A stretch of 64,000 nt of DNA from Balanoglossus misakiensis (lineage: Eukaryota; Animalia; Hemichordata). The notes beneath the pieces were generated by a model. The model saw only the letters and a list, made by a program, of their open reading frames with translations, searched no databases and was not told where the DNA came from. The stretch spans positions 1,602,783 to 1,666,782 of the forward strand of contig CM082580.2 in the NCBI GenBank assembly GCA_040954595.2. The letters are read 5' to 3'. The position numbers were made by a program, and so were the translations under genes. Below, piece after piece: positions 7,699-46,354 of the stretch; within the stretch, counting starts at the first letter, position 1, and each line of letters starts with the position of its first letter.

Positions 7699-10600
7699 TA
7701 GTGTGGTATGATGTGTATTCCCGTAGGATTTTTGTGCTAAAATTGATTTTTTTGCTGTTTTGGCTTCTACGGGGACCCAACTACCCGAAAATGATGGGGT
7801 GCAATTTTAAGGGCCCCTCCATCATATTTTTCTGGGGGGGGGGGGGGGTACTTCCGTTTTGTGGTATGATGTGTATTCCCGTAGGATTTTTCTGCTAAAA
7901 TTGATTTTTTTTGCTGTTTGGCTTCAATGGGGACCCAACTACCCAAAAATCATGGGGTGCAATTTTTAGGGCCCCTCCATCAATTTTTTTCGGGGGGTCT
8001 CTTCTGTTTTGGTCACTCGAGGATATTTGTTCACCTATTTACTCTATCATCATGGGAATTTGGGCTACAATTAATTTGTTTTTGTTGTGTTTGCTTTGGA
8101 GGAGACCAACCTGGCCAAAAATAATCGGGTGCAAATTATAGGGCCCCTCCATCATTTTTTATTTGGGGGGGGGGGGGCACTTCCATTTTGGCCACTCCGA
8201 AGTTGTTTGTTGGCCTATTTACTCCCTTCTCATAGAATATTTTGCTAAAAATATTATTTTTCTTTGATGTTTTGGTTTCAATGGGGCTCCACCAGAACTA
8301 AAATGATGGGGTTCAAATTTTTGGAACCTTCCATCATGTCTTGGGGGGGGGGGAGGGTAATCATTTCTGTTTTGGCCACCCTGAAGATACTTATTCACCT
8401 ATTTACTATACGGTTAGTATTGTCGTGGTATTTCTTGCAATTTGGTTTGCTCCTTTGGCTTGAATGCAGACTGACTGCCGAAAAGTGATGGTGTGCAAAA
8501 TGTTGGACCCCTTTACCACATTTTTGGTGGGGGGGGGGGGTTCTCTATATTTGTTTTCGCCAACCCGTTGTAACAGTAGTTTTTTTTTATCTTAGATTTT
8601 TTCGTTTATTCTAAATTTAGTATACTAAGGTAAATTAAAACTCCTTTATATATAATAAAGTACATAATGTGTATTTTAGTTTATTTTCCGAGCTACAGTC
8701 CCATCTCATAAAATGGACCCTTGAGGCACCCTCCCTACCACGGACGGTGCAATAAACAACCCAAGAAGCATAACGATTCTTTTCTGATATCTTGGTATTC
8801 TCAATCATCATTTTCACGAAACCCAGTTCTGTTTGATCTACTCATCGCCAGTGTCGTTATCTTCAAGAACATTTCCCCCTGGTTTTCAGTCTCCACCATA
8901 GCATTTGCAGAGGGGAGTACATAGTAAATCATTCTTTGAGCAACTGCAACGTCCCCTACAACCTGCTTTGCAGCCACATTTGATAAGCTCTAGTACTGCC
9001 TTTGGTGCAGGGAGAGCAAGACATTTTACTGGATAAAACACGCCATTCTCCGATTTCCACCCATTCTTTTTGATTGGGGGAAGTTCAGGACAATTTGTTG
9101 CGTATGATTTATCTCTCATTGTGATGAAGGGGTGGCACCCTTTTCACAGATCACGCAAATCTTATTTTTATCTACATATTAATTCTGTAGTTTATTGCAA
9201 AATGTCCTAATAGCTATCGAACTGGAACGTAAAACGCTGCTTACGGTGCTAAGAAAATAGCCAATATGTATTTAGTAATAAAACTGAGATGTAGTTCACA
9301 GACTTGTTTTATTTTCAGTAGTATTGAGCTACAAAATGAGCCAAATTTGATATTGTTAATGTTTACCAAAACAAGTTTTAGAAGTAAGACATAGTTCAAG
9401 GGCTTTTTACAGCACTATTTTGCTATTGGCATGAAAATTTTGAAAATACTACTTTAAAATAGACAATACTTCAACTGATATGGCTTTATTTACGACAGTA
9501 TTTAACTTTGAAATGAGTTCAACTGAATATCGTTTTAATACCCCAAAAAACAAGTGTTGATTAAAACGTACTTCAGAGTTTATGCACAGACTTATATCGA
9601 TGAGAATTTTAGTACAATGGTAAATATCTCAGACATTGATTGTGCTACGAAAGAATAAACAACTCTTAACGAAAAAGTTACCAGAATCATATGCATATGA
9701 TTCTGGTAACTCACGGCCCCTCGGGTGTAATAAACGGCTGCTATGGCCCTCATGGCCAGGCAATAGGTGTTCACTATTTGGTATAGCCTAGTATACTATA
9801 TTTTTGTAAACCATAGAAAACATGAGTGTGGTGATGAGTTGGGTGGCGGTCCAAGGTGAGGGGAGGTATATTATGCTAAGTCCAAACCAGAGAGATATTT
9901 GTGGTTGATTTGTTAGTGTCAAAATTCAACTAAGTATATTTATAAAAATAAGATAGCGCTGTAGTATATATGACAACTGATACAAATGTAGGTAACTGAT
10001 ATGTTTACCCATAAACCGTCTAATATTTAAGATTCCCAATATGTGGAGAGGCCCTAAAATTTGACCTCATTTTTGAGCAGTTAGGTCCCCATAGAAGTTA
10101 AAAAAAAAGAAATTGGAAGAAATCCTTTACAAATACACATGTCACACTATGAACAAATATCTCCAGGGCTGCTAAAACTAAAGTGACCCCCCCCCCCCTG
10201 CAAGAAAATGTGATGGAGGGGTCCAACAAATTGATTTCCATCATTTTGGGGATGTTTATTCATCATTGAAACCAAAACAGCAAACAAAACAAATAACTAT
10301 TAGCAAAAACTCCTACGAGAATACACGGTATAGGTGAACAAATACCGTTAAGATTGTCGGAATGTAAGTGCCCCCCCCCCCCACAAATGTAATAGAGGGG
10401 CCCTAAAATTTGCACGTGATCTTTTGTGACCAGGTGTCAAAACAGCAAAAAAAAAATTCTTTAGCAGAAAATTCTACGAAAATGGAGTAGATAGGTGAAT
10501 AAATATCTTCGGGGAGGCCAAAACAGGAGTGACGACCCCCCCCCCGAAAAAATATGATGGAGGGGCCCTAAAAATTGCACCCCATCATTTTCGGGTAGTT

Positions 10601-10847
10601 GGGTCCCCATAGAAGCCAAAACAGCAAAAAAATCAATTTTAGCACAAAAATCCTACGGGAATACACATCATACCACAAAACGGAAGTACCCCCCCCCCCC
10701 GAGAAAAATATGATGGAGGGGCCCTTAAAATTTCACCCCATCATTTTCGGGTAGTTGGGTCCCAATAGAAGCCAAAACAGCAAAAAAATCAATTTTAGCA
10801 CAACAATCCTACGGGAGCTGTTTTTCATGACATACCATACCGCACTA
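7699..10847 (-). mobile_element. Non-autonomous Academ-type DNA transposon (internal deletion derivative) with long, internally repetitive TIRs
   Basis: Termini TAGTGTGGTATG (7699) and CATACCGCACTA (10847). 3-bp TSD ACT at 7696-7698 and 10848-10850; removal restores the satellite variant TTTTCGACTGCAAAATCTC. Arms ~7699-8560 and ~10030-10847 are inverted copies built of ~160-180-bp subrepeats with poly-G/C tracts. TAG..CTA ends with a 3-bp TSD fit Academ. Confidence 0.85.
8886..9119 (-). pseudogene. C-terminal remnant of an Academ-type transposase (Cys-rich CXC-like domain)
   Basis: LPPIKKNGWKSENGVFYPVKCLALPAPKAVLELIKCGCKAGCRGRCSCSKNDLLCTPLCKC fits the P..GW...P...PAP..L..I.C.CK..C...CSC...L.CT..C.C C-terminus of Academ proteins, and it lies between the TIRs. 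Confidence 0.75.
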
Positions 10848-13300
10848 ACTGCAAAATCTCAAAATTTGGTCGATTTTTGAAAAAAATCATGGTGAAAATC
10901 ATCAAAAAATGACAAATTTTTGATTTTGCAAAATCTCAAAATTTCGTCGATTTTGAAAAAAATTATGGGTTCGTCGATTTTTGAAAAAAAACATGGGTGA
11001 ATTTTCGACTTTGCAAAATCTCAAAATTTCATCGATTTTGAAAAAAATCATGGGTTCGTTGATTTTTTAAAAAAACATGGGTGAATTTTCGACTTTGCAA
11101 AATCTCAAAATTTCGTCGATTTGGAAAAAAAATCATGGGTTCGTTGATTTTTAAAAAAAAACATGGGTGAAAATCATCAAAAAATGAAAAATTTTCGATT
11201 TTCCAAATCTCAAAAGTTCGCCGATTTTGAAAAAAAATCATGGGTTCGTCGATTGTTTAAAAAAAACATGGGTGAAAATCAACAAAATGACAAATTTTCG
11301 ACTGCAAAATCTCAAAATTTCGTCGATTTTTGAAAAAAAACATGGGTGAAAATCATCAAAAAATGACAAATTTTCGACTTTGCAAAATGTCAAAATTTCG
11401 TCGATTTTGAAAAAAATTATGGGTTCGTCGATTTTTGAAAAAAATCATGGGTGAAAATCTTCAAAAAATGACAAATTTTCGACTGCAAAATCTCAAAATT
11501 TCGTCGATTTTCGAAAAAAAATAATGGGTGAAAATCATCAAAAAAATGACAAATTTTTGATTTTGCAAAATCTCAAAATTTCGTCGATTTTGAAAAAAAA
11601 TCACGGGTTCGTCGATTTTTTTAAAAAACATGAGTGAAAACCATCAAAAAATGACAAATTTAAGACTGCAAAATCTTAAAATTTCGTCGACTTTTGAAAA
11701 AAAGCATGGGTTCGTTGATTTTTTAAAAAAACATGGGTGAAAATCATCAAAAATTTACAAATTTTCGACTGCAAAATCTCAAAATTTCGTCGATTTTTGA
11801 AAAAAAAATCATGGGTGAAAATCCTCAAAAAAACGACAAATTTTTGATTTTGCAAAATTTCAAAATTTCGTCGATTTTGAAAAAAAATCATGGGTTCGTT
11901 GATTTTTTAAAAAAACATGGGTGAAAATCATCAAAAAATGAAAAATTTTCGACTTTGCAAAATCTCAAAATTTCGTCGATTTTGAAAAAAATTATGGGTT
12001 CGTCGATTTTTGAAAAAAAATCATGGGTGAAAATCATCAAAAAATGACAAATTTTCGATTTTGCAAAATCTCAAAAGTTCGTCGATTTTTGAAAAAAAAA
12101 TCATAGGCTATAGCTCATGAAAATCATCAACAAATGTCAAATTTTCAACTTTGCGAAATCTCAAAATATCGTCGATTTTTGAAAAAAAAAACATGGGTGA
12201 AAATCATCAAAAAATGACAAATTTTCGACTTTGCAAAATCTCAAAATTTCGTCGATTTTGAAAAAAAATATGGGTTCGTCGATTTTTGAAAAAAATCATG
12301 GGTGAAAATAATCAAAAAATGACAAATTTTCGACTGCAAATCTCAAAATTTCGTCGATTTTTGAAAAAAAATCATGGGTGAAAATCATCAAAAAAATGAC
12401 AAATTTTTGATTTTGCAAAATCTCAAAAATCACGGGTTCGTCGATTTTGAAAAAAATCACGGGTTCGTCGATTTTTTAAAAAAACATGGGTGAAAACCAT
12501 CAAAAAATGACAAATTTTCGACTGCAAAATCTCAAAATTTCGTCGATTTTTGAAAAAAAACATGCGTTCGTCGATTTCTGAAAAAAAAAATTTTTGATTT
12601 TGCAAAATCTCAAAAATCACGGGTTCGTCGATTTTGAAAAAAATCACGGGTTCGTCGATTTTTTAAAAAAACATGGGTGAAAACCATCAAAAAATGACAA
12701 ATTTTCGACTGCAAAATCTCAAAATTTCGTCGATTTTTGAAAAAAAACATGCGTTCGTCGATTTCTGAAAAAAAAAACATGGGTGAAAATCATCAAAAAA
12801 TGACAAATTTTTGATTTTGCAAAATCTCAAAATTTCGTCGATTTTGAAAAAAAATCACGGGTTCGTCGATTTTTTAAAAAAACATGGGTGAAAACCATCA
12901 AAAAATGACAAATTTAAGACTGCAAAATCTCACAATTTCGTCGACTTTTGAAAAAAAACATGGGTTCGTCGATTTTTGAAAAAAAAACATGGGTGAAAAT
13001 CATCAAAAAATGAAACATTTTAGACTGCAAAATCTCAAAATTTCGTCGATTTTGAAAAAAATTATGGGTTCGTCGATTTTTAAAAAAAAATCATGGGTGA
13101 AAATCATAAAAAAATGACAAATTTTCGAGTTTGCAAAATCTCAAAATTTCGTAGATTTTTGAAAAAAATCATGGGTGAAAATCATCAAAAAATGAAAAAT
13201 TTTCGACTTTGCATAATCTCAAAATTTCGTCGATTTTGAAAAAAATCATTGGTTCGTCGATTTTTGAAAAAAAAACATCGGTGAAAATCACCAAAAAAAA
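10848..13300 (-). repeat. Satellite A, inverted orientation (second block)
   Basis: The array resumes in register after the ACT TSD and ends abruptly at ~13300. Confidence 0.95.
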
Positions 13301-19619: not shown

Positions 19620-19930
19620 TTTCACAATGAGGCAGTGAACACTGGGGGGACCAGACTGACACGTTAACCAATCAGGGAGCTGTATGGTGAATAAATACAT
19701 ATTAATAAGACCTAACCTACAAGGTCCTGCATAATGAGGCAGTGAACACTGGAGGACCAGACCTACACATTAACCAATCAGGGAGCTGTAAAGTGAATAA
19801 TGCATTGTAATAAGACCTAACCTACAAGGTCTGGTGAATAATACATAGTAATAAGACCTAACACATAAGGTCCCTCCAATCAGCGAGCCGCAAGTGGACC
19901 TTAGAGAAGTGGATAAACCAATCAGAACAT
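19620..19930 (+). repeat. Short degenerate tandem repeat (~106 bp) with multiple CCAAT boxes
   Basis: AATGAGGCAGTGAACACTGG at ~19626 and ~19732; TAATAAGACCTAAC three times; CCAATCAG four times. Confidence 0.7.
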
Positions 19931-19974
19931 GTAATACGTGTGCATAGGACCTGTAATGTAGGTCATTTTGAAAC

Positions 19975-20384
19975 AGGACTAGTTCACCATGACCAACCAC
20001 ATGACCCAGGAAATCGATCTGCTCATAACCCACATAACACTTAGTTGGTCTCGCTGTTAACTTTGCCTTTCGTAGTCTGCTCATCAAATCTGTAATTGTC
20101 TTGATATGTTCTTCCCATGATGCAGTGTGGATCAGTATGTGATCGATATAGTTGTCTACGTTCTTCATATCTCTTAACAATCTTCTCATAATTCTGCTAA
20201 AAGTCGCAGCACTATTTACAAGTCCGAAAGGCATTTTGATAAATTGGTATAGCCCATCATGCGTGATAAATGCCGTCAATTGTTTAGAATTATCAGTCAA
20301 CGGGACTTGCCAATATTCTTTGCTGAGATCTACTTTAGTGAAATAGTGATCCTTGGATAACTTAGCAAAAAGCAAAAAGCTCAC
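19975..20384 (-). pseudogene. pol: Reverse transcriptase, C-terminal part (frameshifted, truncated)
   Basis: YFTKVDLSKEYWQVPL, TAFIT, MPFGLVNSAATF; YIDD is mutated to YIDH. Homology stops after FLGHVVGHGEL. Frameshift relative to the upstream ORF near 20370. Confidence 0.9.
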
Positions 20385-21991
20385 TCAGGTCTGGTGTAGG
20401 CTCTGCATCAAACACTGTTATGCGATTGAGCTTTCTCATGTCAACACAACAACGATTGGACCCATCAGATTTCTTCACCATTACCAGTGGAACAGCATAT
20501 GGACTCTCTGAAGGTTCAGCTACTCCCATCTTAATCATCGTTTTGACTTCATCTTTCACTGCTTCACGGAGTGCATGAGGGATGGGGTATGGCCTACTGC
20601 ATACTGGTGTTGGATCCATCAACTTGATGTCATGGAAACCCAGGTTGGTGTTACCACGAATATCAGTTAACATATCTTTGTAATTGATCAGCAACCTCCT
20701 CACCACTTGCTTCTGTATGTCTGACAAGTTGTCACATACATTCACATCTGCAGCAAATTCTTTCTGCTTGAATGCAGGAACCCGCAGTAAGTCATCGTTT
20801 ACTTTAACCCCTGTGTTCTCTTGTACTTCTGAAGATTCATAACTCTGCTCATCTATCACAGATACACACACAATCTCAAGAAGTCCAGCTGATACTTCAT
20901 CTAGCTGATAAGTTCTTCGATAGTACCTCTTCAACAGGTTGGCATGGAATGTTTTCACCCTATGACCAAAGTCAATCTTGTAATCCATATTGCTCGCTTT
21001 CTCCACCACTGGAAAAGGACCCTTCCAGTGCATAAGTAGTTTATTATGGTCAGTAGGTAGTAGCAATAACACCTCGTCACCTTTGTTGAACTTCCTCCAT
21101 TTGGCCTTTCTATTGTAGTAGGACTTGTATTTGCCTTGTGATATCTTCAGTTCTTGTCTTGCTAAATCGCATGCCTTCTTTAATTTCTTTTGAAGATCAA
21201 GGATGTATTGATAAGTCGTTTTGGTTTCTGGTTCACTGATCTCTCCAGTCCATAGTTCTTTCAAGATAGCCATTGGACCACGCACACTCCTCCCATAAAG
21301 TAACTCAAACGGAGAGAATCCTGTGCTCGATTGAGGCGTTTCTCTGTAGGCAAATAGTAAAGCATTCAGATAACGATCCCAATATGTTGGACGTTCCTCA
21401 CACATCTTCCTGAGCATGAGTTTCAATGTACCATTGAACCGTTCCACTAGACCATTGAATGCTGGGTGGTATGGGGTGGTAGTCATCTGCTTTATAGACA
21501 AAAGCCGGCTGACCTCACGCATCACATCTGATGTAAATTGAGTTCCTTGATCTGTCAGAATTTCACGTGGACACCCCACTCTTGAGTAGATGTCCAGGAG
21601 CGCCTCTGCAACAGTCTTGGTATCAATGTTAGTCAATGCAACAGCCTCCGGATAGCGTGTTGCATAATCAACAACAGTAAGTATGTACCTATTCTTGCGT
21701 TCAGTGCATGGATGAATAGGGCCAACCAGGTCTACTGCAATACGTAGGAAAGGGATATCTATTAGTGGCATACTTCCAAGTGGTACCTTGGTCACCCGTC
21801 CCTTTGGTTGTGTCCGTTGACATGAATCACAGGACTGACAGTAACGGGAAACATCTGATGTTAGCCCAGGCCAAACGAAGTTGCTGAGGATCTTGTCTGT
21901 GGTCTTGTGAGTTCCGTGGTGACCACCCAGCACTGATTCATGGGCTAGTCTCATCACCTGGTTACGATACACTCTGGGAACCACCACCTGT
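20362..21991 (-). pseudogene. pol: Integrase followed by RT N-terminus (Gmr1 pol segment)
   Basis: HHCC (AHESVLGGHHG..CDSC), D (AVDLVGP), D (LTDQGTQF), E (LVERFN), GPF module, then RT start (PYPIP, SPYAVPLVMVKKSDGSNRCCVDMRKLN). Confidence 0.92.
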
Positions 21992-22714
21992 CACTACAGC
22001 TTGAACGACGCCACCTATGGGCAGTATTTCCGTGGCAGCCTATGAAGCTCATGAATATTTAATTAGACACAGTAATGGCGTTCGCGATCGAACACAGCTG
22101 TCGATGCACAGCATAATTCGGTGAGTAATATTGCTTTATTCCAAGTTTTGTTTAGTAAAATTAGCAAGATGTCAGAGACAATATGAAATAAAGTTGCGAT
22201 TCTGCTGTGTTATTTATGTGTATCAGCCAAATAACTTGAACATTTTGATCACCCGCTGACAGTCCCTGGCCGTTGCTATAGCAGAAGCCGTCCTAAGCAA
22301 CCATAAACAAACACTAAAAATTACAACGATTCAGCTTCACAGAATTGTTTTTTTCAATTTGAAAACCATACGAATTTAGTCTTTTATACGTAAACATAGG
22401 ATTCCATGTTTAAAATGCTGCTACAAGCAATATGACGAAATCATACCAAGCGAAAATATACGACCCTGTGTGTTCCTTGGCAGCAGCACGGGTTACATTG
22501 ATTGTAATGGCGGCGCTTCGAATTTTCGGCGACATGGTGATATTGTTCATAGAATTGACAGAAAATAAGACCGTAACTGAAAAATCAGAAACCAATAGTT
22601 TGTGCTAAAATATATTCTTGATATAATTCGCTGGAAATTCGAGGGTGAAAACGAAATAAGAAAAAAATGAATGGGCGAGATTGTTATGGTAAGGTTACCC
22701 ACATTCTTTCTATG

Positions 22715-22912
22715 TCACCTTTGACCTCAATTTCTGGAGGAAGTATAATGAGCAGGTGTTTTGTTTTTGCTTCCCTCGGATAGATAATTATTGTAAAGAT
22801 ATTTCTCTTGTTCACCTTTGACCTCAATTTCTGGAGGAAGTATAATGAGCAGGTGTTTTGTTTTTGCTTCCCTCGGATAGATAATTATTGTAAAGATATT
22901 TCTCTTGTTCAC
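22715..22912 (+). repeat. 97-bp tandem duplication in the putative first intron of the transposase gene
   Basis: TCACCTTTGACCTCAATTTCTGGAGG...GATATTTCTCTTGT occurs twice in tandem, immediately before the acceptor CCCTTTTCAG (22921). Confidence 0.9.
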
Positions 22913-22937
22913 CCTTTTCAGGTATAGATTTAGAGCC

Positions 22938-25900
22938 ATGTGGGGCAAACTATTCAACAGGAGTAGCGCACTTCTTAAAAGTTTGTCTATTGTTATGCCA
23001 AATAGAAAAGGGAAAAGTTACTTCAACATAGGCCAGTGGGCAAAGGACCAAAAGATAGCGAGACAGGTAGCTGAAGAGAAGTGTTTACAACAACTATATC
23101 AGGAGAAATTGAAGACTAGATCTTTGTCTGGGAGCGTGGCCAACAACCTATTGGTAGTTAGAACAAAGAGAGGACAGACTAAACACAGGTTTAACTTAGG
23201 AGAGTGGTGTAGACAGAGAAAGAGAAAGAGAGATGAGGAAGAAAGCATAATTCAGGATAAGTTGAATAAGTTGAGTGCAGCTAGGAGACTAGTAAAAAGA
23301 TCCTCAACCCAGCTAGCTAGACTAGAGAAGAAGAACAGTAAGATTTGTGAGATCTTAGCTACAAAGAATAATAAGAGAAAGGTAAGCTAGATCAGATAAA
23401 TAGACTTAGTCATAATTTTAAAAATCTCAGATTTGTATAAATCCTCTTCAAATTTTAGCCCAAATTCGCTTTTTGAACTTCATGTCACATGATCCTGTGT
23501 AAACAATGATAACAAAATGGGTTCAGCTTTGATGCAAAACATCTAGGTTTTCCAACAAACTATGTATATTTTTTAGGATTTTTATTGCAGAAGTTGTCAG
23601 AAAAATACAGGCTACACGTGTGTATTTCTTATCAAGGACATTTAAATTAATGATTAACTTGTAAGAAGATTTTATTTTATATATAATGATTATATTCTAA
23701 TTAGTATATATTTATCACACACTTAATCTTTCAGATTCCTGTTGATGTTGTTAATGTGAAACGCTCTAAATGGGTCCACAAGAACACTGAAGTATGTGCA
23801 GATAATAGTGAATCTTTGAAGCTGTCGCGACGTCAACAGTATGAACGTAGGTGTGAAACCTTATCAGCAGCCATAAATATTCATGTAGCAACTACAGATG
23901 TAAGCCCAGCCAAAGGTATAAATAAACCGAATGTACTACATCCACCAAAAGCAGCACTTGATGGTTTGTGGTATACTCTTGTTAATTCTGCCACTCCTGA
24001 CCAAATGAAAACATTCTTCAGAACCTCTCCCCAAATCAGTAAAAAAGTAATGCCATCAGTATTTGATAAATACATCAGTAAATTTGAGAAAAGTGAGAAC
24101 AATTTGGTGAGGAGTGTCAGAACTATGTATGAGGGCGGAGTACTATCCAAACGAAAATATAACTGTCTGAGGCAGAGTGAACTTCAGATGTTCTCCAACT
24201 TGAAACATCCTAGGAAAGCAGTAGAAATTCATTCTGGCTGTAGAATACCAAGACTGCTCCCATACACAAAAGTTGTACAGTATGTAAGTAACCTTGACAT
24301 TGGAAATCTTGAGCCAATTATATCATCTGAAGGCAAACAAGTCGGCTTAAAAAGAAACCCTGAGGAGTTGCTTATTAAGATTGCCAGTTTATATTTAAAT
24401 ATGGGGGAAACACAGCCTGATATTCTTAACTGGTTCGGTAAACAGGAGGGCTCATTTCAAATCAGTATAGGTGCTGACGGGGCTCCGTTTGGCAAACATG
24501 GACAGGCCACTGCATGGCTAGTTAGTTTCTTGAATGTGACCCACCGTGTTGCTAGCCCAGACCACAATTTTCTCCTATTAGGGGCAAACATAAAAGAGGA
24601 TGACCCCATAATGATTGAATTTGCAATTGCATTGTCAAAAGACCTTGAGTGTATTGAGAAACGTAAATATAAAGTTGGCAGTCTTGATGTAACTTTTCAG
24701 GTGTCACTTTTACCCTTTGATCAGAAGGGATTGGCCAGTGTGTCTGGAGAACTAAGCAATGCAGCAAAGTATTTCAGCTCATTTGCTAACGTTCCAAAAA
24801 TGATATTGATTGTATTGGAGCAGAAATTGGCCCAGGTCAGAAGTGGGATGAATGGAAATATCAGAAAAGAATTAAAGATGCAGAAGCTGTTGAAAAGTTG
24901 AAGTCAACTAAGAAAATTAAAACTGGAAAGCCCAAAACAGTGCGACCCAAAATCACACAATTTATAGCCAGTCTGAGGTCAAGACAGGAATTTGTACCAC
25001 CGTTGGGTAGATTTATTGATTGTGCCAAGGCTGAGCCATTGCATTTAAAGAACAATGCATGGCAATACTACTTCCAACGATTACTGATTGACGCAGTTGC
25101 CCACACTTCGGAAAAGGGTCGTGAAAATGGAGTTAAAATTGAGAATCTACCTAACGAGTCATATCTGTACAAATTCCTGTCTGCCCTAAAATATCAAGTA
25201 AAAGCTGGAAAGTTGTATAATAAGATTGTAAAATACTTCAATGAAAATAGTGTCAAGTCAAATGCCAACATTAATGTGGTTTATCGCTTCACTGGTGAGG
25301 AGTCTCGCAAACTTGCTTGGCATTTCATAGGATTGGTATTAGCATTGAGAAGCGATACAGACAGACCAAAGCGTCGGGCTCAATTAGCTCTCTACACATA
25401 TACTGGTATCTTGCTTAGAGATATCACTTTGTTATTCTCACGATTCAACATAAATGAGGGAGATTTGCTTGTACTTAGGCATAAGTGTCGGTGGTACTTT
25501 AATCTACATTCCCTGTTTCTGAATGTCAATAATACTGTGTGGCACATTGGTTATGTAGTCCCAAAACACACCACTAGTATCTATAAGCAATTCAGTCTGG
25601 GATTAGGCCTAAACACAATGGAAGGCAGAGAGGCAAAGCATCTACGCCTGCTAGAATTCAGTGAAAATTCTACACCTCAAAATAGGTGGGCCCTCATATT
25701 TCGACACGAATATGTGATGCTTTTTTGGCTGAGGAACAAAAGTCCAAAAGCTGACAACTATAGAAATGCAAATGTAGGTCAATTTGAGCTTAAAGAAAAA
25801 GAAAAATACATTCCCAGTCGATATTATGAGAATGCAGGCTACTGTATGTGTGGCAATTTAAAAAAATGAAACAATGACTGCCTGTGAAATATGTGTTGAC

Positions 25901-25975
25901 CCAATTATGGATGACATAAAAAAAGCAGCTGTCACTGGTAAAATATCAAATAAACTCAAGAAACTTATGCTGTGA
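22938..25975 (+). pseudogene. Spliced RAG1/Transib-like DDE transposase (coding exons 22938-23381 and 23735-25975; two apparent 1-bp frameshifts)
   Basis: Phase-0 intron AAG|GTAAGC (23382) to TCTTTCAG|ATT (23734) joins the 161-aa and 381-aa ORFs in frame. Motifs: IGADGAP (D ~24476), PFDQK (D ~24719), EPLHLKNN, FTGEESRKL, GLNTMEGREAKH (E ~25630). Frameshifts near 24793 and in the A-run at ~25860-25866; the second restores a CMCG..CEIC tail ending TGA at 25975. Confidence 0.75.
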
Positions 25976-26827
25976 ACAATGATTGAATTTGAAACAGTGG
26001 ATTGTGTCACTGTGTGCTACTTTAGAATTAAAGGATAACTATAGTATTAATTACATTACAGAATTATAAAGACTCATCTGTAGTTGAGAGCTGCATTTAA
26101 TAAAAATGGAGATCACAAATCACATGAATTCACACTTTTTGAACTGGAGATGATATGTTTCTTATGGGATTTTGTATATGTGTGCATGTATGGGGACAGG
26201 GAAATTGAAACTTATCTTACCACTATTAAGTATTGTGAATAAACCCTTAATCGTATAGTGATTGCAGTGCTTTGCAAAATTAAAATGTATGACATACATA
26301 AGCTTGATAGAAAAGTTTTACATTTTTCTTGAGGAGTTGTTTATTCTGCACCTGCACGAAATTTTAATGAATTTGTGAAAAAATAAAGAATTAAGTCTCA
26401 TCAAATTCTTGATATTTATAAATTTTGTCATGGAATTAATTGTAAATATTAATTAAATTTAGACCAGAAATCCTGGTTAACTGTTAGATGAGCAGTTTTG
26501 ATTGACTTATCAATGTTGATTGTAGGTAACATACATTTTTTTCTGAAACTAATGAAAAATCTATGTTACAATAATGATGGAAAAAAAGAATTTTACAGTT
26601 TAGGAAATTTTGTAAACATTATCTGTTCATTTGTATTGAATGTAGATAAATAAAGACAAGTGATGAATTTTTGAGTCTTCTAATTTTCCTTTTTTTATTT
26701 GAATATATGTCAATTGTGAGAGGACTGTCTTGACAGACTGATACATCTACACTGAACAACATGTGCCACAGATCAGGAAAAAAATGTTCCTCAGATGGGT
26801 TGAATCAGTGTGAAAAATCAATAGGGT

Positions 26828-27478
26828 TCAGTTCTCTGGATGTAATGGAATTCCATGTTTGTTCCAGGCACCAAAGCTGAATCTAACAGCAACAGTCTCC
26901 CTGTTGATAAAATATTTCACAACACAGGGCTTCTCAGGTGTGAATATAACAGCTACCCTCTTTCCACGGACTTTCTTCTCTAGGATATTCTCTGTATGCT
27001 GACCGATAGCGCCCTCGTAGCAATAACCTTTCCGTATCACATACAATAGCTTCAAGGAACTTGTGAAGGTCAAGGTTATGATAGCCCTGGAGGTCTTCTC
27101 GTCGATACCAAAACCGGTCCGAGTAGCAAACTGATGAAAAACATCAAATACTTCCCTCGGCATTTGTCGTGTAAAGCTGCTTTGCCATGGTGACCTTAAC
27201 GACGGGGATGTTGACAGCCGAGCGTAGAAGGTCTTCTGCCAGTAGGTCATATCACGCTGAAACATGGGAAATACGGCGACGTCACGCCAACGAATCTTGT
27301 CCTTTGACAGCTTGTCGTTTCGAAATATGGCCCTTGTTGTCACATCCTCAAGTTCATCAAAGAGTGGGTGTATATACAGATTGTCCGACACGCATTTTTT
27401 ACGTTTAAGCACAGATTTTGCCTCTCGCAATTTGCGTTTTATAACTTTCTCGGCATCGATCAACACGGGCGCCGCCAT
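26828..27478 (-). CDS. Intact 216-aa protein of unknown function, second (convergent) gene of the transposon
   Basis: Uninterrupted ORF; strong start context CCAAGATGGCGGCG 85 nt inside the right terminus; basic NLS-like N-terminus (KRKLREAKSVLKRKK); minus-strand AATAAA downstream at ~26694-26699. Confidence 0.75.
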   Translation of the reverse strand: MAAPVLIDAEKVIKRKLREAKSVLKRKKCVSDNLYIHPLFDELEDVTTRAIFRNDKLSKDKIRWRDVAVFPMFQRDMTYWQKTFYARLSTSPSLRSPWQSSFTRQMPREVFDVFHQFATRTGFGIDEKTSRAIITLTFTSSLKLLYVIRKGYCYEGAIGQHTENILEKKVRGKRVAVIFTPEKPCVVKYFINRETVAVRFSFGAWNKHGIPLHPEN

Positions 27479-27562
27479 CTTGGCAATGCGTTGCTATGGT
27501 GAACATGGGAGCTCGCGCTTCGCGGAATACTGCCCAACATAGCTCTAGTATTTCCCGCAGTG

Positions 27563-29370
27563 TGTAACAGCTTTTCACCAAATTGGACCATTGGCGAATT
27601 GAACTCTCTGTACAGGATCCCATCTTTCATGATGAACTTCAACCTACCTCCATTCCTAGTCACTTTCTCGTCACCCAAAATTGCCTTCTCACGTAGTTTG
27701 TCAAGAGTGGAGTCTTCTTCTTGAGCTTGTTGAAGCTTCCCTGGCATCACCACTTCACCAACAGCTTTAGGTACTTTAAGCTCTCTGATTGGTTTTTGGT
27801 TGGCTATCTTCTGGGCTCTGGTCTCCACAGCATTTGCTAAACCTGGTACCTGTCCAACAGTTGTACACAGTCTACATGTCGGCAATGGTTCCTGCCATGT
27901 AGTATCAGGATTCGAAGGGTCAGATACACCATCAATGTTGCCCAGTATTAAATCATACACATGGTTCATCATGCACAGTGCAGTAACATCACCAACAAAG
28001 TAAGGGGTATCAACTTTTATAGAGGCTACAGGTACTCTTCTAATAGTCCCATCTATCAGAACACACGTCCTGTACTCACCAGTCAGCTGATTACTTGACA
28101 CCAGACTTCTTCGAACTACCACGCTACTACACCAACTATCACGCAAAACGCTAACCAGCTTACCATCGAGCAATCCCTTCATTACCGGCATCTTCTTCAC
28201 TCCATGGGCACTACAAGCAGCACTCATCACTGGGAGCTTATGACCACATGGTAACACGAACTCCTTATTCAGTGTTGCATCTGTTTTATCTATTTCCATT
28301 GCTACCACCATACATGCATAACCAGTGTCTAGTCCCCTGGGCTGTTGACGGTTGCCCCAATGTGTACATTCTTGTTTAGGTGGATAGTTTCTATCTTCTT
28401 CAGTTAACAATACCGCCGTCTTATGCATCTTTGGCTTACTTCTACAATCTTTGGCCATATGACCACCTTTACCACATACGAAGCACGTACCTTTAAAAAC
28501 ATGGGAACCATTGGTTTTGTTATTAAACTTATTTACTTGATTTGGATATACAGCAGGCTTGGTATTTGCTGTCGGCTGGCTCCTTGGATTATTCTTGGCA
28601 TTACTTGGCAGTTTCCACCACCCTCGGGCATCTAAGTATTTTGAGGCAGTAGATACCATCTCTTGGACATTCTCTGGCCGTCGCTCTCTAATGAACATTG
28701 CCATGTCTCTGGAACATACTCCAATAAACTGCTCTCGAAGTAACAGATCTGTAAGCCCATTGTACGTCTTTGGAGTACCAGCCAGTTCTACCCATCTGCC
28801 CAAATAGTCACCAATACGGTCCATAAACTTTTGAGCACTTTCATCATAATGTGGCATACACGAACGGAACTTGTCATGAAAACTCTCCTCACTTAACTGG
28901 TAAGCCCTCAATAACTCTGGTTTCAATTCATCATAATTATTTGCAGACGCTGCAGGCATTTGGTTGTATGTGGATACATCCTTACCTTGTAACAATATGC
29001 ACTGAGATTCACCCCCAGTCATCTTTTTCCCACTTCTGAGCAGTGGCGTAGCGCTGAAAACGTTGAAGGTACGCATCCATATCATCAACATCCTCACGAA
29101 AACCCTGTAGTCTCGGAGCACGCGCTTTGGCCAAATTATTTTCAGTAACCTGCTGTTCTGTATTTTCCCCTTTCAATTTTAATTCTTGTAAGTGAATTTG
29201 CATTTTCAGTATCTCTCTCTCATGTTCCTCGCGCCGCCTATTATCTTCTCTCTGCTCCTCTCTCTCAGTAGCCCTAAGATCCCTCTGTCTAATTTGTTCC
29301 TCTCTAACATAATCTTTTAAAGCAGTCCCTTCCAACCCAAATTTTCTCCCTATCTTAGATATTCTTTCTG
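27563..29370 (-). pseudogene. gag: Gmr1-like gag-protease (frameshifted)
   Basis: Coiled-coil N-terminus, DDMDAYLQRFQRYA, SCAN-like LLLREQFIGVCSRDMAMFIRERRPENVQEMVSTA, CCHC knuckle CFVCGKGGHMAKDC, protease LRDSWC (DSG degenerate) and DLILGN; frameshifts near 29000-29015. Confidence 0.88.
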
Positions 29371-29654
29371 CATATATGCTTTGCTGTATCGCGATTTACA
29401 ACCCCCAGTTTGACAACCCCTAGCAGTACAGGGCATTCAGCACAAGTCAACACAGCCAAACGCACGACGCAAACCAACACGGCCCATATTATATAGCAGG
29501 AAACCACAAGCGCACATACAGTAACAGTACCAGCCTACAGACCCAGCACCGTCTTCACAATTTGCAGAATCTCTACCTAGCAAAACCATGGTCTCCACTA
29601 TATGGCAACAATTTATGATAGTATACAAACAAATGCACAACAAAACGATAAAAC

Positions 29655-37780: not shown

Positions 37781-38325
37781 TCAAAGTGCAGAGCTTGCAT
37801 CACCATCTACCCCTTACAGTACTTATGGCCATGTATTAACCTAGGGATTTACAGTCAACATTAAATACCCATGCATATATTAACCTGGGAATTTACATTC
37901 AACATTAAATACCCATGCATATATTAACCTGGGAATTTACATTCAACATTAAATACCTATGCACATGCATTAAATACGTATGCCAAAGCGCAGAGCTTGG
38001 ATCACCATCTACACTGATGCATCATTAGGCTTGCTACGCCATTTCCCCTAATGCAAAGAATCACATTCAATGTCACCATTGTATTAGCTATGTCAAATTT
38101 CAGTGCTTTTGGACTTGTATTAACCCAGGGATTTTCAGTCAACTTTTAATCCCCACATGCATTTAATACCCATGTCAAAGTGAAGTGTTTGCATCACTAT
38201 CTACCGGGATGCATCATCAAGCTTGCATCGCCATTTACCCTGATGCAAAGAATCAGATTCAGTGTCACCATTTCATTAGCAATGTAAAATAAAATTGCTT
38301 TTTGCCAAGTATTAACCAGGGGTAC
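37678..38325 (+). repeat. Short block of satellite B monomers
   Basis: CATTAGCAATGTCAAATTACAGTGCTTTTGGCCA...GATGCATCATCAAGCTTGC units, the same type as the 54250-64000 array. Confidence 0.9.
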
Positions 38326-39121: not shown

Positions 39122-41941
39122 CTATCCTTCTGGCATGCAATAGTCTTTGTGCCAAGGAGGTTTAGATTTTATTCTTGTTGAGCGTCTCACATCAGTACTA
39201 TTGGGGTTTACATTTGTCTTAGGTGATATTGTCACTGGCATTGTTGGAGGAACATTTACAATCGTTTCCAACGATGCTGTACCAGTAGGTGAAACAGGAC
39301 TAGGACATGCTGGTCCAGTTGATTTCTGACTAGAACAGACGGGTTATACTGGCAAGTTATCCAGGTTGTTATGTGTAGACAAATCATGGATATGGGGGTT
39401 ACAGGATGGAACACCATTTTGAACCCTTTGAGGTTGTTCATATGTCAAATGTTTGGAGTTCCATTCAGTGCCCTGGAAGGAAAATTCTGGATATTCCTCA
39501 ACATATTTCTTTACATGTCCAGTGGACCTTCTTTTTACACCTTTGGAGTTTTCCAATACTAACGCACCTCCATCTTTCTGGATGACTTTGTATGGTTCTG
39601 TCTCGAAATTGGGAGTGAGTTTGTTTTGCCTAAATGCTTGCTGGAGCAAAACAGTATCACCTTCCCTGATATCTGAGGAAGTGGCATGTCTCCTGTTGTC
39701 GGCATAGAACTTTTGTTTCATTTTCATTCTGTTGTTTCTTTCTCTCATTTTGATTTGCCAATCAGACTCATTGATTGTTTGGGATGGAATTCTCAGTCTA
39801 GGAATTTTGTCCCTAAACTCTCTTCCCATCAGAGCCATAGCAGGAGATATGCCTGTCACAGTATGGGGTGTATTTCTATATTCAAATAGAAAATGTGTCA
39901 AATCTTTGTACCAACTTTTCTTTTGCAATTTAGCAATTCGTACAGACTTCAAAATTATTTCATTCAGCCTCTCAACACTTCCATTGCTCTGAGGCCAGTA
40001 TGGAATGGAATATTCATGATCAATACCTAAGTAATCAAGGAAACCTTCAAACTCGGCTGAGGTAAAAGGTGGACCATTGTCTGATTTGACACAGTAAGGC
40101 AACCCATGTGTAAGAAACATAGCTTCCATGGCTTTTATGACATGGGCAGCATCTGTTTTCTTTAACAAAACTACTTCAGGCCATCTAGAGTATAAATCAG
40201 TTACCACTAGTAATTTCTCACCATCACATACATCCAAAAGATCAACTGCTAAATCGAACCATGGTCCTTCAGGTAACTGTGTGGGAAATAATGGCTCTGG
40301 GTTTGGCCTGGCACTGACCAATTGACATGGATGACAGGATCGTATCAGTTTTTCCACATCCCTGTCCATTCCTGGCCACCAAACTCTGTCACGTAAACGA
40401 GCCTTTGTCCTCACAATTCCCTGATGACCCTGGTGTGCAATTTTCAAGATTTTTCTTTGCAAAACTTGAGGAACAACCAATCTGTTACCACGCATGATCA
40501 ATCTGCCATACAACCATAATTCGTCTTTCACATGCCAATAGGGTGAAGACTTCAATTTTGACCAATTTGCAGAGGTAATACACTTTTCAACCAATTGCAA
40601 GCTCTGGTCTTTTGCAGATTCTCTCTCAATATCACGTGGGGTGATAGCAGATGGCATAGCCTCTAAAACAACACTACATGCAAAATCTTCAGTCTCTCTA
40701 CAATAGTTGTCAGATGGTTCGTCCACGGGCAATCTACTCAACATGTCCGCATAATTATTCTTTCCCTTGATATGGGTGATATGATAATCAAATTGTTGCA
40801 TATATAACAGCCATCTCTCAATTCTAGCTGAAGGGGGCCTGGAGTTAGGGCTGAATACTTTCAATAAAGGCTTATGGTCAGTTCTGACCTCAAAATGACT
40901 GCCTAGCAGAAACTGCTGAAGTTTCTCACATGCCCATTTAACTCCAAGCGCCTCTCGCTCAAACTGAGAGTACCTCGACTCAACATGTGTAAGCTTTCTG
41001 CTAACATAGTACACTGGTTGATATGAACCATTACTTTGCATTTGTTCAAGGATTGCTCCAACACCAACGGGCGATGCATCAGAAGTGACTCGAGTTTTAG
41101 CACCCTGCTTGAAATAAGCCATGAATGGACTTGTGGTCAATTTATGTTTGATGAGATTGAATACTTTCTCATGCTTGGGAAGCCATTTCCACTTTGCATC
41201 TTTGCGAGTCAAATCCCACAGTGGGCTTGTCACTGTTGCAAATTTATCGACATATTTTGAGCAAAATTGAGCCAGCCCAAAGAAACTTCTCAATTCTGAT
41301 TTGTCAGTTGGCGTTCGAGCTTTTACAATAGCTTTGACCTTCTCATCAGTGAGTTTCATACCCTGGGCCGTCATCAAGTGACCCATGAATATCATACTGT
41401 CTCCTAGCTTACATTTTGTAAAGTTCAGCGTTAAACCATGCTCACTAAAACGCTTGATCACTTTCCCAACTCTGGCATGCAGCTGCTCATAATTTTCAGC
41501 TACTACTCTAATATCATCATGCATGTTGTGGGCACCCTCACAGCCCTTCAAAACCTGGCTAATTAGATTTTGAAACTTTTCAGTCGCCATGTTCACACCA
41601 AAAACTAAACGCTTGTAGCGATACAAAGAGTTGGGCCCTGAAAAGGTTGTAATATCCCTGCTCTTTTCATCGAGCTCAATTTGATGGAAAGCCATATTCA
41701 TATCAAGCTTGCAAAATACCTTGGCCCCTGAAATTTCCTCTAGCGTTTCATCCATGGTGGGAACAGGGTGTCTTTCCCTAACAATGGCTTGATTTGCTTT
41801 TCTCATGTCCAGACATAGTCTGATATCCCCATCAGGCTTTTGTACTGTTACAAGGGGGTTGACCCAAGAGGTCGGACCCGAAACCTTCTCTATTACTCCC
41901 AGCTTTTGAAGCTCGTTGAGTTTTTTCAACAACTTTAGCAC
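39122..41941 (-). CDS. pol: Pol (RT-RNase H-integrase); premature TAA at 39344-39346
   Basis: RT (WVNPLV, IRLCLDMR, KLDMNMAFHQI, LVFGV, MHDD), RNase H (SDASPVGVGA, EREALG, TDHKPL, ADMLSR), integrase (HQGH..CHPC, AVDL, SDNGPPF, VERLN). The frame continues past the TAA to RRSTRIKSKPPWHKDY and TAG at 39122. Confidence 0.93.
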
Positions 41942-43463
41942 GGCGGTTGAAAGGAATTCGCCGGTACTGGGCTATGGGTTTGACACTCTCATCAATATGC
42001 AAATGGAGCTTGTAGCCCTTTAACTTACCCAACCCATTAAATACCTCAGAATATTTCCTCCGCAATTCTGCAAGAATTGGCGAAGAATTATCAGCAGATA
42101 TTGAATTTATCGTGTACAGATTCACATTTCCAACTCTCAACATATCTAAATTCTCAGAAGTACTCCGACTCAACAAAATCGGTTGATCAGCCTTGATCAC
42201 TATAAAATCAGCAATACATTTCTTTTTAGTAGGCGCTTCAACATGTAAGGCACATTTACCCAATATATCTAAAGGTTTACTAGAACCATAGGTAAACACT
42301 TTATTGTTACAATTTCGAACTTTCACACCACGCTTTTCAGCAAGTCTGCGAAATTGTCTTTCACCAATGAGATTACATGTAGCACCACTGTCGATGATAA
42401 CCGGCACGTGTTGATTCTCGATCTGAATACCTGTATCAGTGAGGTCCTTCCCACTGGAAGCACGGAAAGCAGCATTGAAAGCATAGTACGCTTTCTCCTC
42501 GTCAGTCTCGACGTCTGCATGGCCACCATCGGCGTTTGCATCAGTAGTCGTCTGAGCTACCTTGTGTGTACCGCGACCATCACCACGCGTACGGCCACGT
42601 CCACGTGCGCTGCGGTTACCACCACTGCCTCGACTGTTGCCATTTTCACTGTCTTTAGACGGACAGTCTTCCCACTTAGCACGACAGTCTGCAGCTCTGT
42701 GTCCCGGTTTTTGACATCGGAAACACCGGTCGGACTTTTGTTCGGCATTGCGAGAACTACCACTTGTACTGGCGCGACATTCACGTTGCATGTGACCTTT
42801 CCTTCCACAACGGAAACAGGCTAAGTCCGCCATTTTGTTTTTGGCGCGCGTACGTTTACCGCCAATATTGACTGCATTTGCACTCACAGCTTGAGTACCA
42901 GACACCAAAACTAGTGCATCTTTGTCGTGATACGACCATATGATTTGTAGTAGTTTGGTAGTGTCCAAATTCTTTTCACGATACAGCTTGCTTTTTAGCA
43001 CCTTGTCGCTGATGTAGAGCAAGACACGATCTCTTATCTGGTTGTCTTTTTCCGTCTCGGGAAAATCACAGTCTTTCAGTAGGTTCTTGAGACGTATTAC
43101 GTAGCTGTCGACCGTCTCCCCGGACGTGGGAGTTGCGCTGTAAAACTTCTGTCTCGCCATAGGAACGTTTTTCTGCAGTTGAAAGTGTTTATCCAAACAT
43201 GCTATCAACGTTGCGCAGTTTGTGACGTCACCAGTTTCATCTTCAGATTTAGTGCAAACAATGTCTCTGATGCCCGCTCCAGCCATGTGCAAAAGTAAGG
43301 CACGCTTCTGCGCATTATTTGAAACACCAGAAGCTGCTACGAACAGTTCAAATTCCTGAAGCCAACGCTCCCACCTTTGCTGAAGAGCCTCCGGTTCGCC
43401 TTCACAGTCGAATCCCGCCACTCCTGGCAGTCCGGACAGCGTTACGGGTGTAGACATTTTCAT
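41832..43463 (-). CDS. gag: Gag-protease with two CCHC zinc knuckles
   Basis: WERWLQEF, QKRALLLH, CFRCGRKGHMQREC, CFRCQKPGHRAADC, protease IIDSGATCN and PILLSR; separated from pol by one extra A in an A6 run near 41925. Confidence 0.93.
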   Translation of the reverse strand: MKMSTPVTLSGLPGVAGFDCEGEPEALQQRWERWLQEFELFVAASGVSNNAQKRALLLHMAGAGIRDIVCTKSEDETGDVTNCATLIACLDKHFQLQKNVPMARQKFYSATPTSGETVDSYVIRLKNLLKDCDFPETEKDNQIRDRVLLYISDKVLKSKLYREKNLDTTKLLQIIWSYHDKDALVLVSGTQAVSANAVNIGGKRTRAKNKMADLACFRCGRKGHMQRECRASTSGSSRNAEQKSDRCFRCQKPGHRAADCRAKWEDCPSKDSENGNSRGSGGNRSARGRGRTRGDGRGTHKVAQTTTDANADGGHADVETDEEKAYYAFNAAFRASSGKDLTDTGIQIENQHVPVIIDSGATCNLIGERQFRRLAEKRGVKVRNCNNKVFTYGSSKPLDILGKCALHVEAPTKKKCIADFIVIKADQPILLSRSTSENLDMLRVGNVNLYTINSISADNSSPILAELRRKYSEVFNGLGKLKGYKLHLHIDESVKPIAQYRRIPFNRRAKVVEKTQRASKAGSNREGFGSDLLGQPPCNSTKA

Positions 43464-43546
43464 GCACTCAAATCACGGCTAAAAAGTCACCAAATCTCGT
43501 AAAGGTTGCTTGCGTATGTTCTTCGATAGTTAATTTAGACAACTAA

Positions 43547-43717: not shown

Positions 43718-44203
43718 ATGATCTGATATAAACTGATGGTTCATAACTATTCACCATAGACCTGAACTTGTTTGTGACATTTACTGATGCAAATAACAAC
43801 TGCACAATTTGAATATTGCCATAACTATTTTCAAAGGTAGTTTGACACCCACCCCACCCAAAATGATAGAAGGATCAGTTAGTAACATTCTATACCCTTA
43901 CATTTTTATGTGTCAGTGTCACACATATTTAGAAGATAAATGAAAACTGAATACAAGAATAAAAGTTTGTCTAACCTTTATGATCTTCTTTGACAAGTTC
44001 TTGGCAGCATGCCAAATGTCATGAGAATGTTTTATGTCTGGGTGATCGTCTCCTATAAGAGTGGGTAAATGTGATTACAAATGGAGCTTCAAAATGACAG
44101 TGTTATGATTGCCAAATACATTATCTCAGAAAAACAAAATCAACATTGACCTGTATAACAGCTTTGCTTTTGGCATTTCAAAGCAACATATAACCCAAGT
44201 TAA

Positions 44204-44998
44204 GATGGGTCCCTAGGATCTTTTTGCTCGTTGCTATGGGCCTTTATAGGACACTACACTCAATTTTGATCGAAACCGTTATGAACGTCCGACAAGGGGC
44301 TTGTAACTAGTTAAAAATACGCACGATTGTGTGCACACCCCCTGTCCGAGTATGGTTACGGCAGCTACCGCCCGGCCATAGGCCGCCACGCTAATATGGC
44401 AAAGCAGCAGTCACCGATAGCGTGCGCGTCCTGTAACCACAGTAACTGGATCGAACGCTAAATATCCAATGTTTTGTACACAGAGATTTTGTACCGTTCA
44501 CGAAAATCCCTAAGGCTTTTTTCATAGGCGACGTAGGCCAGCCAAATTTGACCTGCTTGTTGAGAACGCACTTCCGCATAGTGTGACGGATCGTTTTTTC
44601 GGTTTTCGTCGTGCTAAGAAGCGATACCGGTGGAAGAGTGCGTCCAAAAACACCCAAAATCGATGACTTTTTCAGGTGTGGTACGGGTATGCTGAAATCG
44701 TAGGATACAACGATAATATTCGAAAACAAAATCCGTCACGATCTTCCCTGGTTCAAGCAACTAATGAATACGTATCAAGTTCGTTTTTGAGGTCACGGAA
44801 TAAAAAGCCTTAGGCTTTTGAAATTTGACCTAGCTAATTTGCATATCAATGGCGTCAGGGGGCGCGCGCTCACAATCGTGCAGATTTTCAACTAGTTACC
44901 AGCCCCTTGTTAGACTCTGAAAACGGCTTAGTCCAAATCGGGGTGTAATGTCCTATAAAGGCCCATAGCAACGGGCAAAAAGATCCTAGGGACCCATC
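44204..44998. mobile_element. Non-autonomous TTAA-specific TIR element (Kolobok-type ends) in a Kolobok intron
   Basis: TTAA|GATGGGTCCCTAGGATCTTTTTGC...GCAAAAAGATCCTAGGGACCCATC|TTAA; imperfect TIR ~130 bp; the RR terminus favours Kolobok over piggyBac. Confidence 0.88.
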
Positions 44999-46317
44999 TT
45001 AAAATCATAAAATTACACTTACTCATCAGAGCTGTAATCTGCATGTGGGCATCTGTTATGACTTCTTTGACATTTACACCTTTCTCCTGAAGCTGGTTTA
45101 GACTTTTAACAAGGCAGGCCTTTTCCATGTTTGTTGACTTCTTCTCTGTTTCTCTTTTGTCCATGGTTATTATCGACAGAATTTTCTTGGTGGTTTCCTC
45201 CATCACAGTATAGGTGCAATATTGCGCACAAAAACCCGGGGAATCCATTCGCCCATCACCTGAGACATAATCAAGTAAATATGTCAGTCAAATTATACAT
45301 AAGTATGCATAAGTGAGAACATTTCCAATTCAATGATTTTACAATGAGTATGAAATGATGCAAATGAGGAAGTAAATGCCACCAAATAATAACTATTGTA
45401 TTCTTTTCTAAATCAGCAGAATAGAGTGTGTAAGTATAAACTTTTAGACATAAATTACAAGTGCATTGGCCGACATGTGATGGATAATCAGTGGGGTGAG
45501 CCAATCAGATTAGGTGCGTGTCATTAACAATGAAGCTAAAAACTTACCCAGTAAAACAAGTTCTTGGCCATCAAATGAATCAATGATGTCTTGTTGTTGT
45601 CGTATCCAAAATTCATCAAGACATGGTATTAGATAAGCTTTCTGAATTCTATTGTAAGTATTCTGGGAGCAAATTCTGAGTGACAGAATGCTTGCCAAAA
45701 AATTAATTTTGGCATAATTATTACCAGACAATAGAATGACAGCTGCTGTGAAGAGATCACCACTATGAAGTCTCCTGTTCAAAATTGGTTGTGAACACCA
45801 TTCGTAGTCAAGGTGACCAGCTGAGCATTCCTGAAAAAAAAAAGTTTAAAGATTCATGCTTATTTGATCATTTCATGTTGATTTCTCCAAGACACGATAA
45901 AACAGATGTTAATACCGATAACTTTGTAATTTCAGTTGACTATTGTTTTTTATTATAAACCTAAAGGAACAATGTGCACCCACATAGGATTATAACTAGA
46001 GTTTCCTGTTCATCTAAATAATACTGGCATAGTGATTGTCCATACAATGCACACTACAGTTGGTATAGTTTAACAATAATTGTCAAGAATATACCATATT
46101 TAGTTCACACTCACCCACTTTAGATATAAAGCTGAGCCAACAAACTTTGAAGTAGAGGATATCAATCCACTGCAAGACTTCAATGCACAGACTTGCCTAA
46201 TAGATTTTTTGCCAAGGGCCAGAAGCTGGTTAAAAAAAACAGACATGTTGTAGAGTCACCAAGGAGGCTTTCCCCATCTTCTTCTGTGACAACTCTCTGC
46301 AGACCCGGTGATGGTGT

Positions 46318-46319
<2 letters not shown>

Positions 46320-46353
<34 letters not shown>
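46320..46353. repeat. (CAT)n microsatellite encoding poly-Asp in a Kolobok exon
   Basis: About 11 CAT units; reads DDDDDDDDDDD on the minus strand. Confidence 0.9.

Positions 46354-46354
<1 letters not shown>

Follow-up and report, generated by a model that had tools for sequence, protein, structure and literature searches.

A convergent second gene accompanies a predicted RAG1-fold transposase in a CMCT-like DNA transposon family represented in Balanoglossus misakiensis

Transposons of the RAGL group carry, beside the transposase, a partner gene encoding a kelch-PHD protein, and in protostomes their TSDs are invariably 5 bp long (PMC7204232; PMC numbers here and below refer to excerpts of the papers). 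The CMCT clade (EnSpm, Mirage, Chapaev and Transib) is defined by CA..TG termini, a TSD of 2–5 bp and a C(2)C motif (PMC12730594). Chapaev3 is described with CAC..GTG ends, a 3-bp TSD of sequence TWA, an LH motif and C(2)C, and the excerpt mentions no second gene (PMC4079192). Second proteins are described elsewhere: maize Spm requires TnpA besides TnpD, TnpA being made by alternative splicing (PMC1636069), and the second protein of Harbinger/Nuwa (Myb/SANT) is described as DNA-binding (PMC12730594).

The window, that is, the whole 64,000-nt stretch of Balanoglossus misakiensis DNA analysed here, contains a 5.6-kb transposon with two genes (Table 1). The element begins with CACTACAG and its other end is the reverse complement of CACTGCGG. 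Its flanks agree at 3 bp (and trivially at 1 bp) and disagree at 2 bp and at 4–8 bp. It was inserted into a single Gypsy element, the two flanks being adjoining parts of it. The start of the second gene (ORF2, minus strand) sits 85 nt inside the right end, so that this gene and the transposase (plus strand) are arranged tail-to-tail. The transposase carries two frameshifts and the copy is therefore a non-autonomous relic. Upstream of the transposase there is a perfect 97-bp tandem duplication at 22715–22913; the X1 and X2 contigs show one unit, which may be collapse or real variation.

The window as a whole is rich in repeats and animal-like in character. Two overlapping ORFs of a second Gypsy element, at 39344–43472 on the minus strand, encode gag (PNMA-like, with two zinc-knuckle matches) followed by reverse transcriptase, RNase H and integrase. 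At about 44000–46500, also on the minus strand, lies a transposase-like gene of several exons, which contains a GDGRMDSPG motif and matches nothing in Pfam at E 0.01. AT-rich satellite occupies 1–7700 and 10800–13300 (unit 78–79 bp, subunits 26–29 bp, strand switch near 6750), a 156–158 bp repeat is found in inverted orientation at 7702–7997 and 10536–10816, and a further satellite fills 54250–64000 and 37830–38321, its unit measuring about 192 bp and its higher-order periods 287, 378 and 387 bp.

Table 1 Features of the transposon and its flanks in the window; ORF2 parts are given in residues
Feature	Position	Strand	Remarks
Whole DNA transposon	21992-27562	.	5,571 bp, ends CACT...AGTG
Left TSD copy, TGT	21989-21991	+	Flanking sequence comparison
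Right TSD copy, TGT	27563-27565	+	Flanking sequence comparison
Left TIR, degenerate	21992-22032	+	CACT and a subterminal 11-nt block also present at the right end
Right TIR	27523-27562	-	ORF2 start codon 85 nt inside
Gypsy flank: integrase then reverse transcriptase (integrase-before-RT order)	19770-21988	-	Domain matches
Gypsy flank: gag (SCAN, zinc knuckle), protease-like part	27566-29395	-	Domain matches
Transposase, predicted first coding exon	22938-23381	+	Basic; F-N-[IL]-G-x-W twice; coiled-coil-like stretch; splice sites by eye
Transposase, main exon	23735-25975	+	D (DGAPFG), D (PFDQK), LH, E (MEGREAKH), C-terminal CxCG..CxxC
Transposase frameshifts, two	near 24797 and near 25863	+	
ORF2	26828-27478	-	216 aa, 651 nt, ATG 27478 to TGA 26828, single exon
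ORF2, N-terminal helical hairpin	residues 3-53		Predicted model
ORF2, basic helix	residues 69-87		Predicted model
ORF2, alpha/beta domain	residues 99-205		Predicted model
ORF2, conserved motif G-x-W-N-x-x-G-x-P-x-H	C-terminus		Homolog alignment
AATAAA, candidate poly(A) signal	26694-26699	-	About 130 nt past the ORF2 stop

Long homologs of the transposase number 23, at 35–43% identity; named members of their clusters belong to Pocillopora, Porites, Acropora and Paramuricea, and Actinostola gives a partial match. Full-length homologs begin similarly to the predicted first exon, with an RFP[IVL][GA]E start, and that exon resembles the helicase-associated HA domain at a score below threshold (E 4e-4). 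The residues D259, D342 and E643 are invariant in all 34 aligned sequences. A model of homolog P0087 (pLDDT 82) was searched with Foldseek and gave RAG1 as best match (E 5e-14, TM 0.47 by query length, 12% identity), followed by BbRAG1L (3e-8) and HzTransib (4e-6); from this model a RAG1 fold is predicted for the family. It may simply be that no members of the clade other than RAG1, Transib and ProtoRAG have solved structures. Sequence-level searches of the transposase against RAG1 gave no match (identity 11–13%).

C(2)C is absent from the 45 aa past the second D in all 34 sequences, where a YFSSF-like sequence is found instead, and cysteines conserved in at least 80% of the 34 are all N-terminal to the second D or C-terminal to the E. 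H(3-4)H, a further motif of the CMCT clade, precedes the E in 14 of them, its second His, H622, being invariant. At the C-terminus, a CxCG..CxxC tail distinct from that of RAGL is present in 29/34, and the RAGL CTT motif, Cx2Cx3GHx4C, in none. Toward the N-terminus, where Chapaev3 has its Chapa zinc finger, no conserved Cys was seen before position 297 in alignment A3, which is without most first exons. Transposase_21 (PF02992) was matched by none of 22 transposase members at E ≤ 0.1 and by none of the pieces in the window.

The element was compared with several described groups. Its likeness to ProtoRAG/RAGL consists in two convergent genes between TIRs starting with CAC, a DDE transposase with the RAG1 fold (as predicted for P0087) and a Cys-rich C-terminal tail; the differences are a TSD of 3 bp rather than 5 bp, a transposase without C(2)C and without the Cx2Cx3GHx4C tail, and a second gene with neither a kelch nor a PHD domain. 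RAGL/ProtoRAG membership was rejected on the 3-bp TSD and the lack of C(2)C, the CTT motif and a kelch-PHD partner, and the ProtoRAG setting implied by the first-pass annotation, an earlier reading of this DNA, was given up with it. Chapaev3 shares the CAC..GTG ends, the 3-bp TSD and the LH motif, but its TWA occurs in only one of six TSDs here and C(2)C is missing, so that this assignment too was rejected. Because C(2)C is absent and the TSD is 3 bp, the transposase is not one of RAGL/ProtoRAG, Transib or Chapaev3. With EnSpm/CACTA there are in common the CACT ends of the window element, a short TSD and two element proteins, one of them likely non-catalytic; however, alternative splicing of one transcription unit yields TnpA as well as TnpD, whereas ORF2 is encoded on the strand opposite its transposase, and the absence of Transposase_21 in 22 transposases led us to reject membership. 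Harbinger/Nuwa elements also have a 3-bp TSD and a separate second protein, but their transposase belongs to another superfamily and ORF2 has no Myb/SANT match. The CA..TG termini and 2–5 bp TSD of the CMCT clade are found here and its C(2)C motif is found in 0/34 transposases; for this reason we call the family CMCT-like, judging by sequence. By analogy, the gene pair resembles ProtoRAG in layout and Spm TnpA/TnpD in logic. Among the papers that literature searches turned up, no title or abstract opening describes this pairing, and a motif search of one supplement of PMC12730594 gave no match; Repbase, Repbase Reports and other supplements could already contain the family. This lineage of two-gene transposons, whose transposase is predicted to share the RAG1 fold, is apparently undescribed.

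ORF2 is the clean, intronless 216-aa frame that had been described at first pass, with a GC content of 45% (GC3 50%). The first-pass annotation had also proposed a structure prediction and a fold search. The predicted structure is confident (pLDDT 91, pTM 0.80), with 5 helices and 7 strands over its 216 residues: helices at 3–27, 30–53 and 69–87 are followed by strands and helices up to residue 205. The four hydrophobic stretches from which a beta-rich domain had been suspected, IITLTF, VAVIFT, CVVKYF and VAVRFSFG, are all present and each lies on a predicted strand (E133–138, E173–178, E185–190 and E195–205). PDB and fold searches with the full model gave no clear match. The basic N-terminus noted earlier is real in the window's copy (net charge +5) and does not extend to the family, whose median is −1 (range −13 to +6, 50 sequences); from these sequences it is peculiar to this copy. 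The basic part of the family is the C-terminal region (median +11), and the pI exceeds 9 in 72% of 50 sequences. K or R occupies positions 86, 87, 168 and 183 in 80–95% of the family, the window's protein carrying Ala where R86 is conserved. No nearly invariant D or E occurs in the family alignment; among 60 sequences no Cys column reaches 50%, and one His is conserved.

ORF2 had been called an orphan, a description that no longer applies. A word-index search gave zero matches, and phmmer against 1.84 billion representatives returned 81 proteins at E ≤ 1e-3 (12 at ≤ 1e-10) with identities of 20–39%, in clusters of up to 216 members. Alignment A1 was built from the query and 59 of the 81 homologs, leaving out the shortest fragments and a 613-aa fusion (P0065). 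Its columns conserved in at least 90% of sequences are P97, F111, G203, W205, N206 and H213, and the full-length homologs mostly terminate at the same C-terminal motif as the window's protein. In a profile search 19 of the 20 matches bore the precomputed Pfam accession PF26709.1, which indicates that this protein family already has a Pfam entry, PF26709. A local Pfam scan of 60 members found neither PF26709 nor any known chromatin-reader or enzyme family, Myb/SANT or ArgoN/PAZ.

The last of these bears on the reading of ORF2 as an RNA-binding relative of the Argonaute N domain that would serve as a decoy against small-RNA defence. Language-model features rank Argonaute N/PAZ clusters first (score 0.93, with agreement among 9 of the 10 best family-bearing matches), and the beta-alpha-beta-beta-alpha order of the model is compatible with it. 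However, the tool itself rates the lead as weak (recognition 1361 vs 2300, common features 140 vs 170); it disappears with homolog P0017 and has no counterpart among the 60 members scanned for ArgoN/PAZ, and we regard this relationship as highly improbable.

The ORF2 domain is also seen in one host-like protein. In Tubulanus polymorphus the locus LOC141906646 (P0065, P0169 and P0170) encodes a Tau/MAP protein with three tubulin-binding repeats and the ORF2 domain at the C-terminus (E about 1e-23; one figure is 5e-23), which may reflect exaptation or, alternatively, a gene model fused to an inserted element.

The genomic surroundings of the transposase were examined in related elements. A scan with alignment A2 confirmed the transposase in 174 of 411 metagenome stretches and in 1 of 30 stretches from prokaryote genomes, and the best 80 of the 174 together with the latter gave 81 loci, all found via the transposase. 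Of these 81, 28 have an ORF2 homolog downstream, 0.3–4.0 kb away and on the opposite strand in every case; most of the remaining loci end too early. Where the transposase match reaches the C-terminus, a convergent homolog is present in 27/39 loci with at least 1 kb of downstream DNA, 23/28 with at least 1.5 kb, 16/20 with at least 2 kb and 12/14 with at least 3 kb. The possibility raised at first pass that related elements might have no homolog of the gene was not borne out, and its transposon-borne position, convergent with the transposase inside the TIRs as RAG2L is in ProtoRAG, was upheld. At the five other loci of the 28 no homolog was detected even at E 10; a reason is visible only for L033, where a TIR-like end follows 746 nt past the transposase. 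The loci of the survey are not independent and collapse to 13 families, or 14 with the window. The only non-convergent matches in the search were to a 31-aa fragment in L017–L019. Partial plus-strand copies of ORF2 occur upstream of the transposase (L081:6988-7329, L017:1168-1260, L018:804-896 and L019:3228-3320), near the left end in L081, L017 and L018, which suggests inverted duplications inside some elements.

Complete homologous elements span 4.7–8.5 kb with the layout seen in the window, and some copies are intact, L001 and L017 among them. Their right ends read CAC[AG][CG][CT]G[GA]G and lie 71–132 nt from the ORF2 start, whose codon is usually within A[AT]ATGGCG, a sequence that may resemble a YY1 site. 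Ten loci with both ends and at least 6 nt of flank on each side were picked by eye for comparison of TSDs. A 3-bp match was found in five, a 2-bp match in one and a 4- or 5-bp match in none, the chance of at least five 3-bp matches in ten being about 5e-7; the mismatched flanks may be joined flanks of different copies. Together with the window the 3-bp TSDs are TGT, TTA, TAG, AGC, ATT and ATA. One complete element with a 3-bp TSD, L081:6403-14944, comes from a contig assigned to an Anaerolineae MAG; its flanks (55–60% GC) contain no ORF of at least 150 aa and for that reason the contig is probably eukaryotic contamination.

The convergent position is an argument for taking ORF2 as a highly diverged RAG2 homolog, and the host-like Tau/MAP protein of Tubulanus is one for taking it as a passenger gene captured by the window's copy. 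The model, however, is three helices and an alpha/beta domain, not a six-bladed propeller, and the family lacks GG repeats (median 0; none in the window's protein, which has 3 Cys) and conserved Cys, in agreement with the first-pass view that the protein is not RAG2-like. Against a passenger, and against the host exon in a single copy that had been contemplated, ORF2 occurs in 14 families in which it tracks the transposase, and the Tubulanus case is a single locus open to the explanations given above. Both origins are extremely improbable.

The shared descent of the two genes is seen in their pairwise identities (Mantel rho 0.65, p 1e-4, 14 families) and in their trees, which have 7 of 11 splits in common (p 1e-4); among splits with support of at least 90, three are common and none conflict. 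The position of the window is poorly resolved in both trees. Selection was estimated by the Nei–Gojobori method for 28 pairs at 45–99.5% identity out of the 300 pairs among 25 ORF2 sequences. The dN/dS ratio is 0.31 for L001/L005 (dS 0.30, p 8e-6), 0.32 for L005/L062 (p < 2e-5) and 0.51, not significant, for L001/L062 (p 0.10); in the other 25 pairs, at 47–57% protein identity, dS is saturated. By sequence comparison ORF2 is under purifying selection among homologs, with a ratio of about 0.3 and not near 1 as had been allowed for; every relative of the window's copy is too distant for such an estimate. That its ORF2 is intact beside a frameshifted transposase, to which meaning had been attached, is correct as an observation; a 651-nt ORF would stay open by chance with P = 0.62 at two frameshifts per about 2.7 kb, and the contrast therefore says nothing on selection here.

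We propose, with a probability of roughly 0.55, that ORF2, the conserved second gene, encodes a small, basic, non-catalytic helper, which binds the element DNA or the transposase–DNA complex and promotes transposition. It would be transcribed from a promoter in the right end of the element. The protein may contact DNA via its conserved basic helix (W80..R86-R87) and K168/K183, with the near-invariant C-terminal GxWN..PQH surface as a putative partner contact, and would act in trans on the ends or the transpososome as a non-catalytic cofactor needed for transposition.

An anti-silencing or regulatory function would account just as well for the co-inheritance and selection. An anti-silencing or chromatin factor would protect the element against silencing by the host and make no contact with the transposase. 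It predicts the same pattern of co-inheritance and selection, and is consistent with the faster divergence of ORF2 (mean identity 23% vs 41% for the transposase); fungal transposons of the CMCT clade carry TET/JBP genes proposed to aid escape from silencing (PMC12730594), and TnpA itself also acts on promoter methylation (PMC1636069). On the other hand, the Pfam scan linked none of the 60 ORF2 members to a known family of chromatin readers or enzymes, and TET genes move between superfamilies (PMC12730594), unlike ORF2, which follows its transposase with no conflict among well-supported splits; we consider this role unlikely. A negative regulator, keeping copy number down by binding to the ends or to the transposase, or a convergent transcript acting as antisense, would suit the convergent layout and a basic, apparently non-catalytic protein. 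Purifying selection at the protein level rules out an antisense role of the RNA only, and retention in deep lineages would be easier to explain if ORF2 helps the element to spread, which makes a negative regulator very unlikely.

The helper proposed above could take a more specific form, in which a RAG1-fold lineage independently recruited an obligatory subunit, ORF2 docking on its transposase like RAG2 on RAG1 and shaping the 3-bp stagger. We offer this tentatively, as a rather doubtful extension. The ORF2 fold would then possibly be new as well as unrelated to RAG2, going by the predicted model, and, if so, the two-component RAG design would have evolved twice, with the same convergent layout.

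Work on the origin of adaptive immunity still faces the question of how RAG2 was acquired by a Transib-like element with a single gene. The present family offers a parallel case, in which a transposase predicted to have the RAG1 fold has an unrelated convergent partner, kept over deep divergence, together with a different TSD length and the lack of C(2)C. The partner has a confident model without a clear match among solved structures. With intact copies available and relatives of the transposase in corals, the benefit conferred by a second subunit is directly testable.
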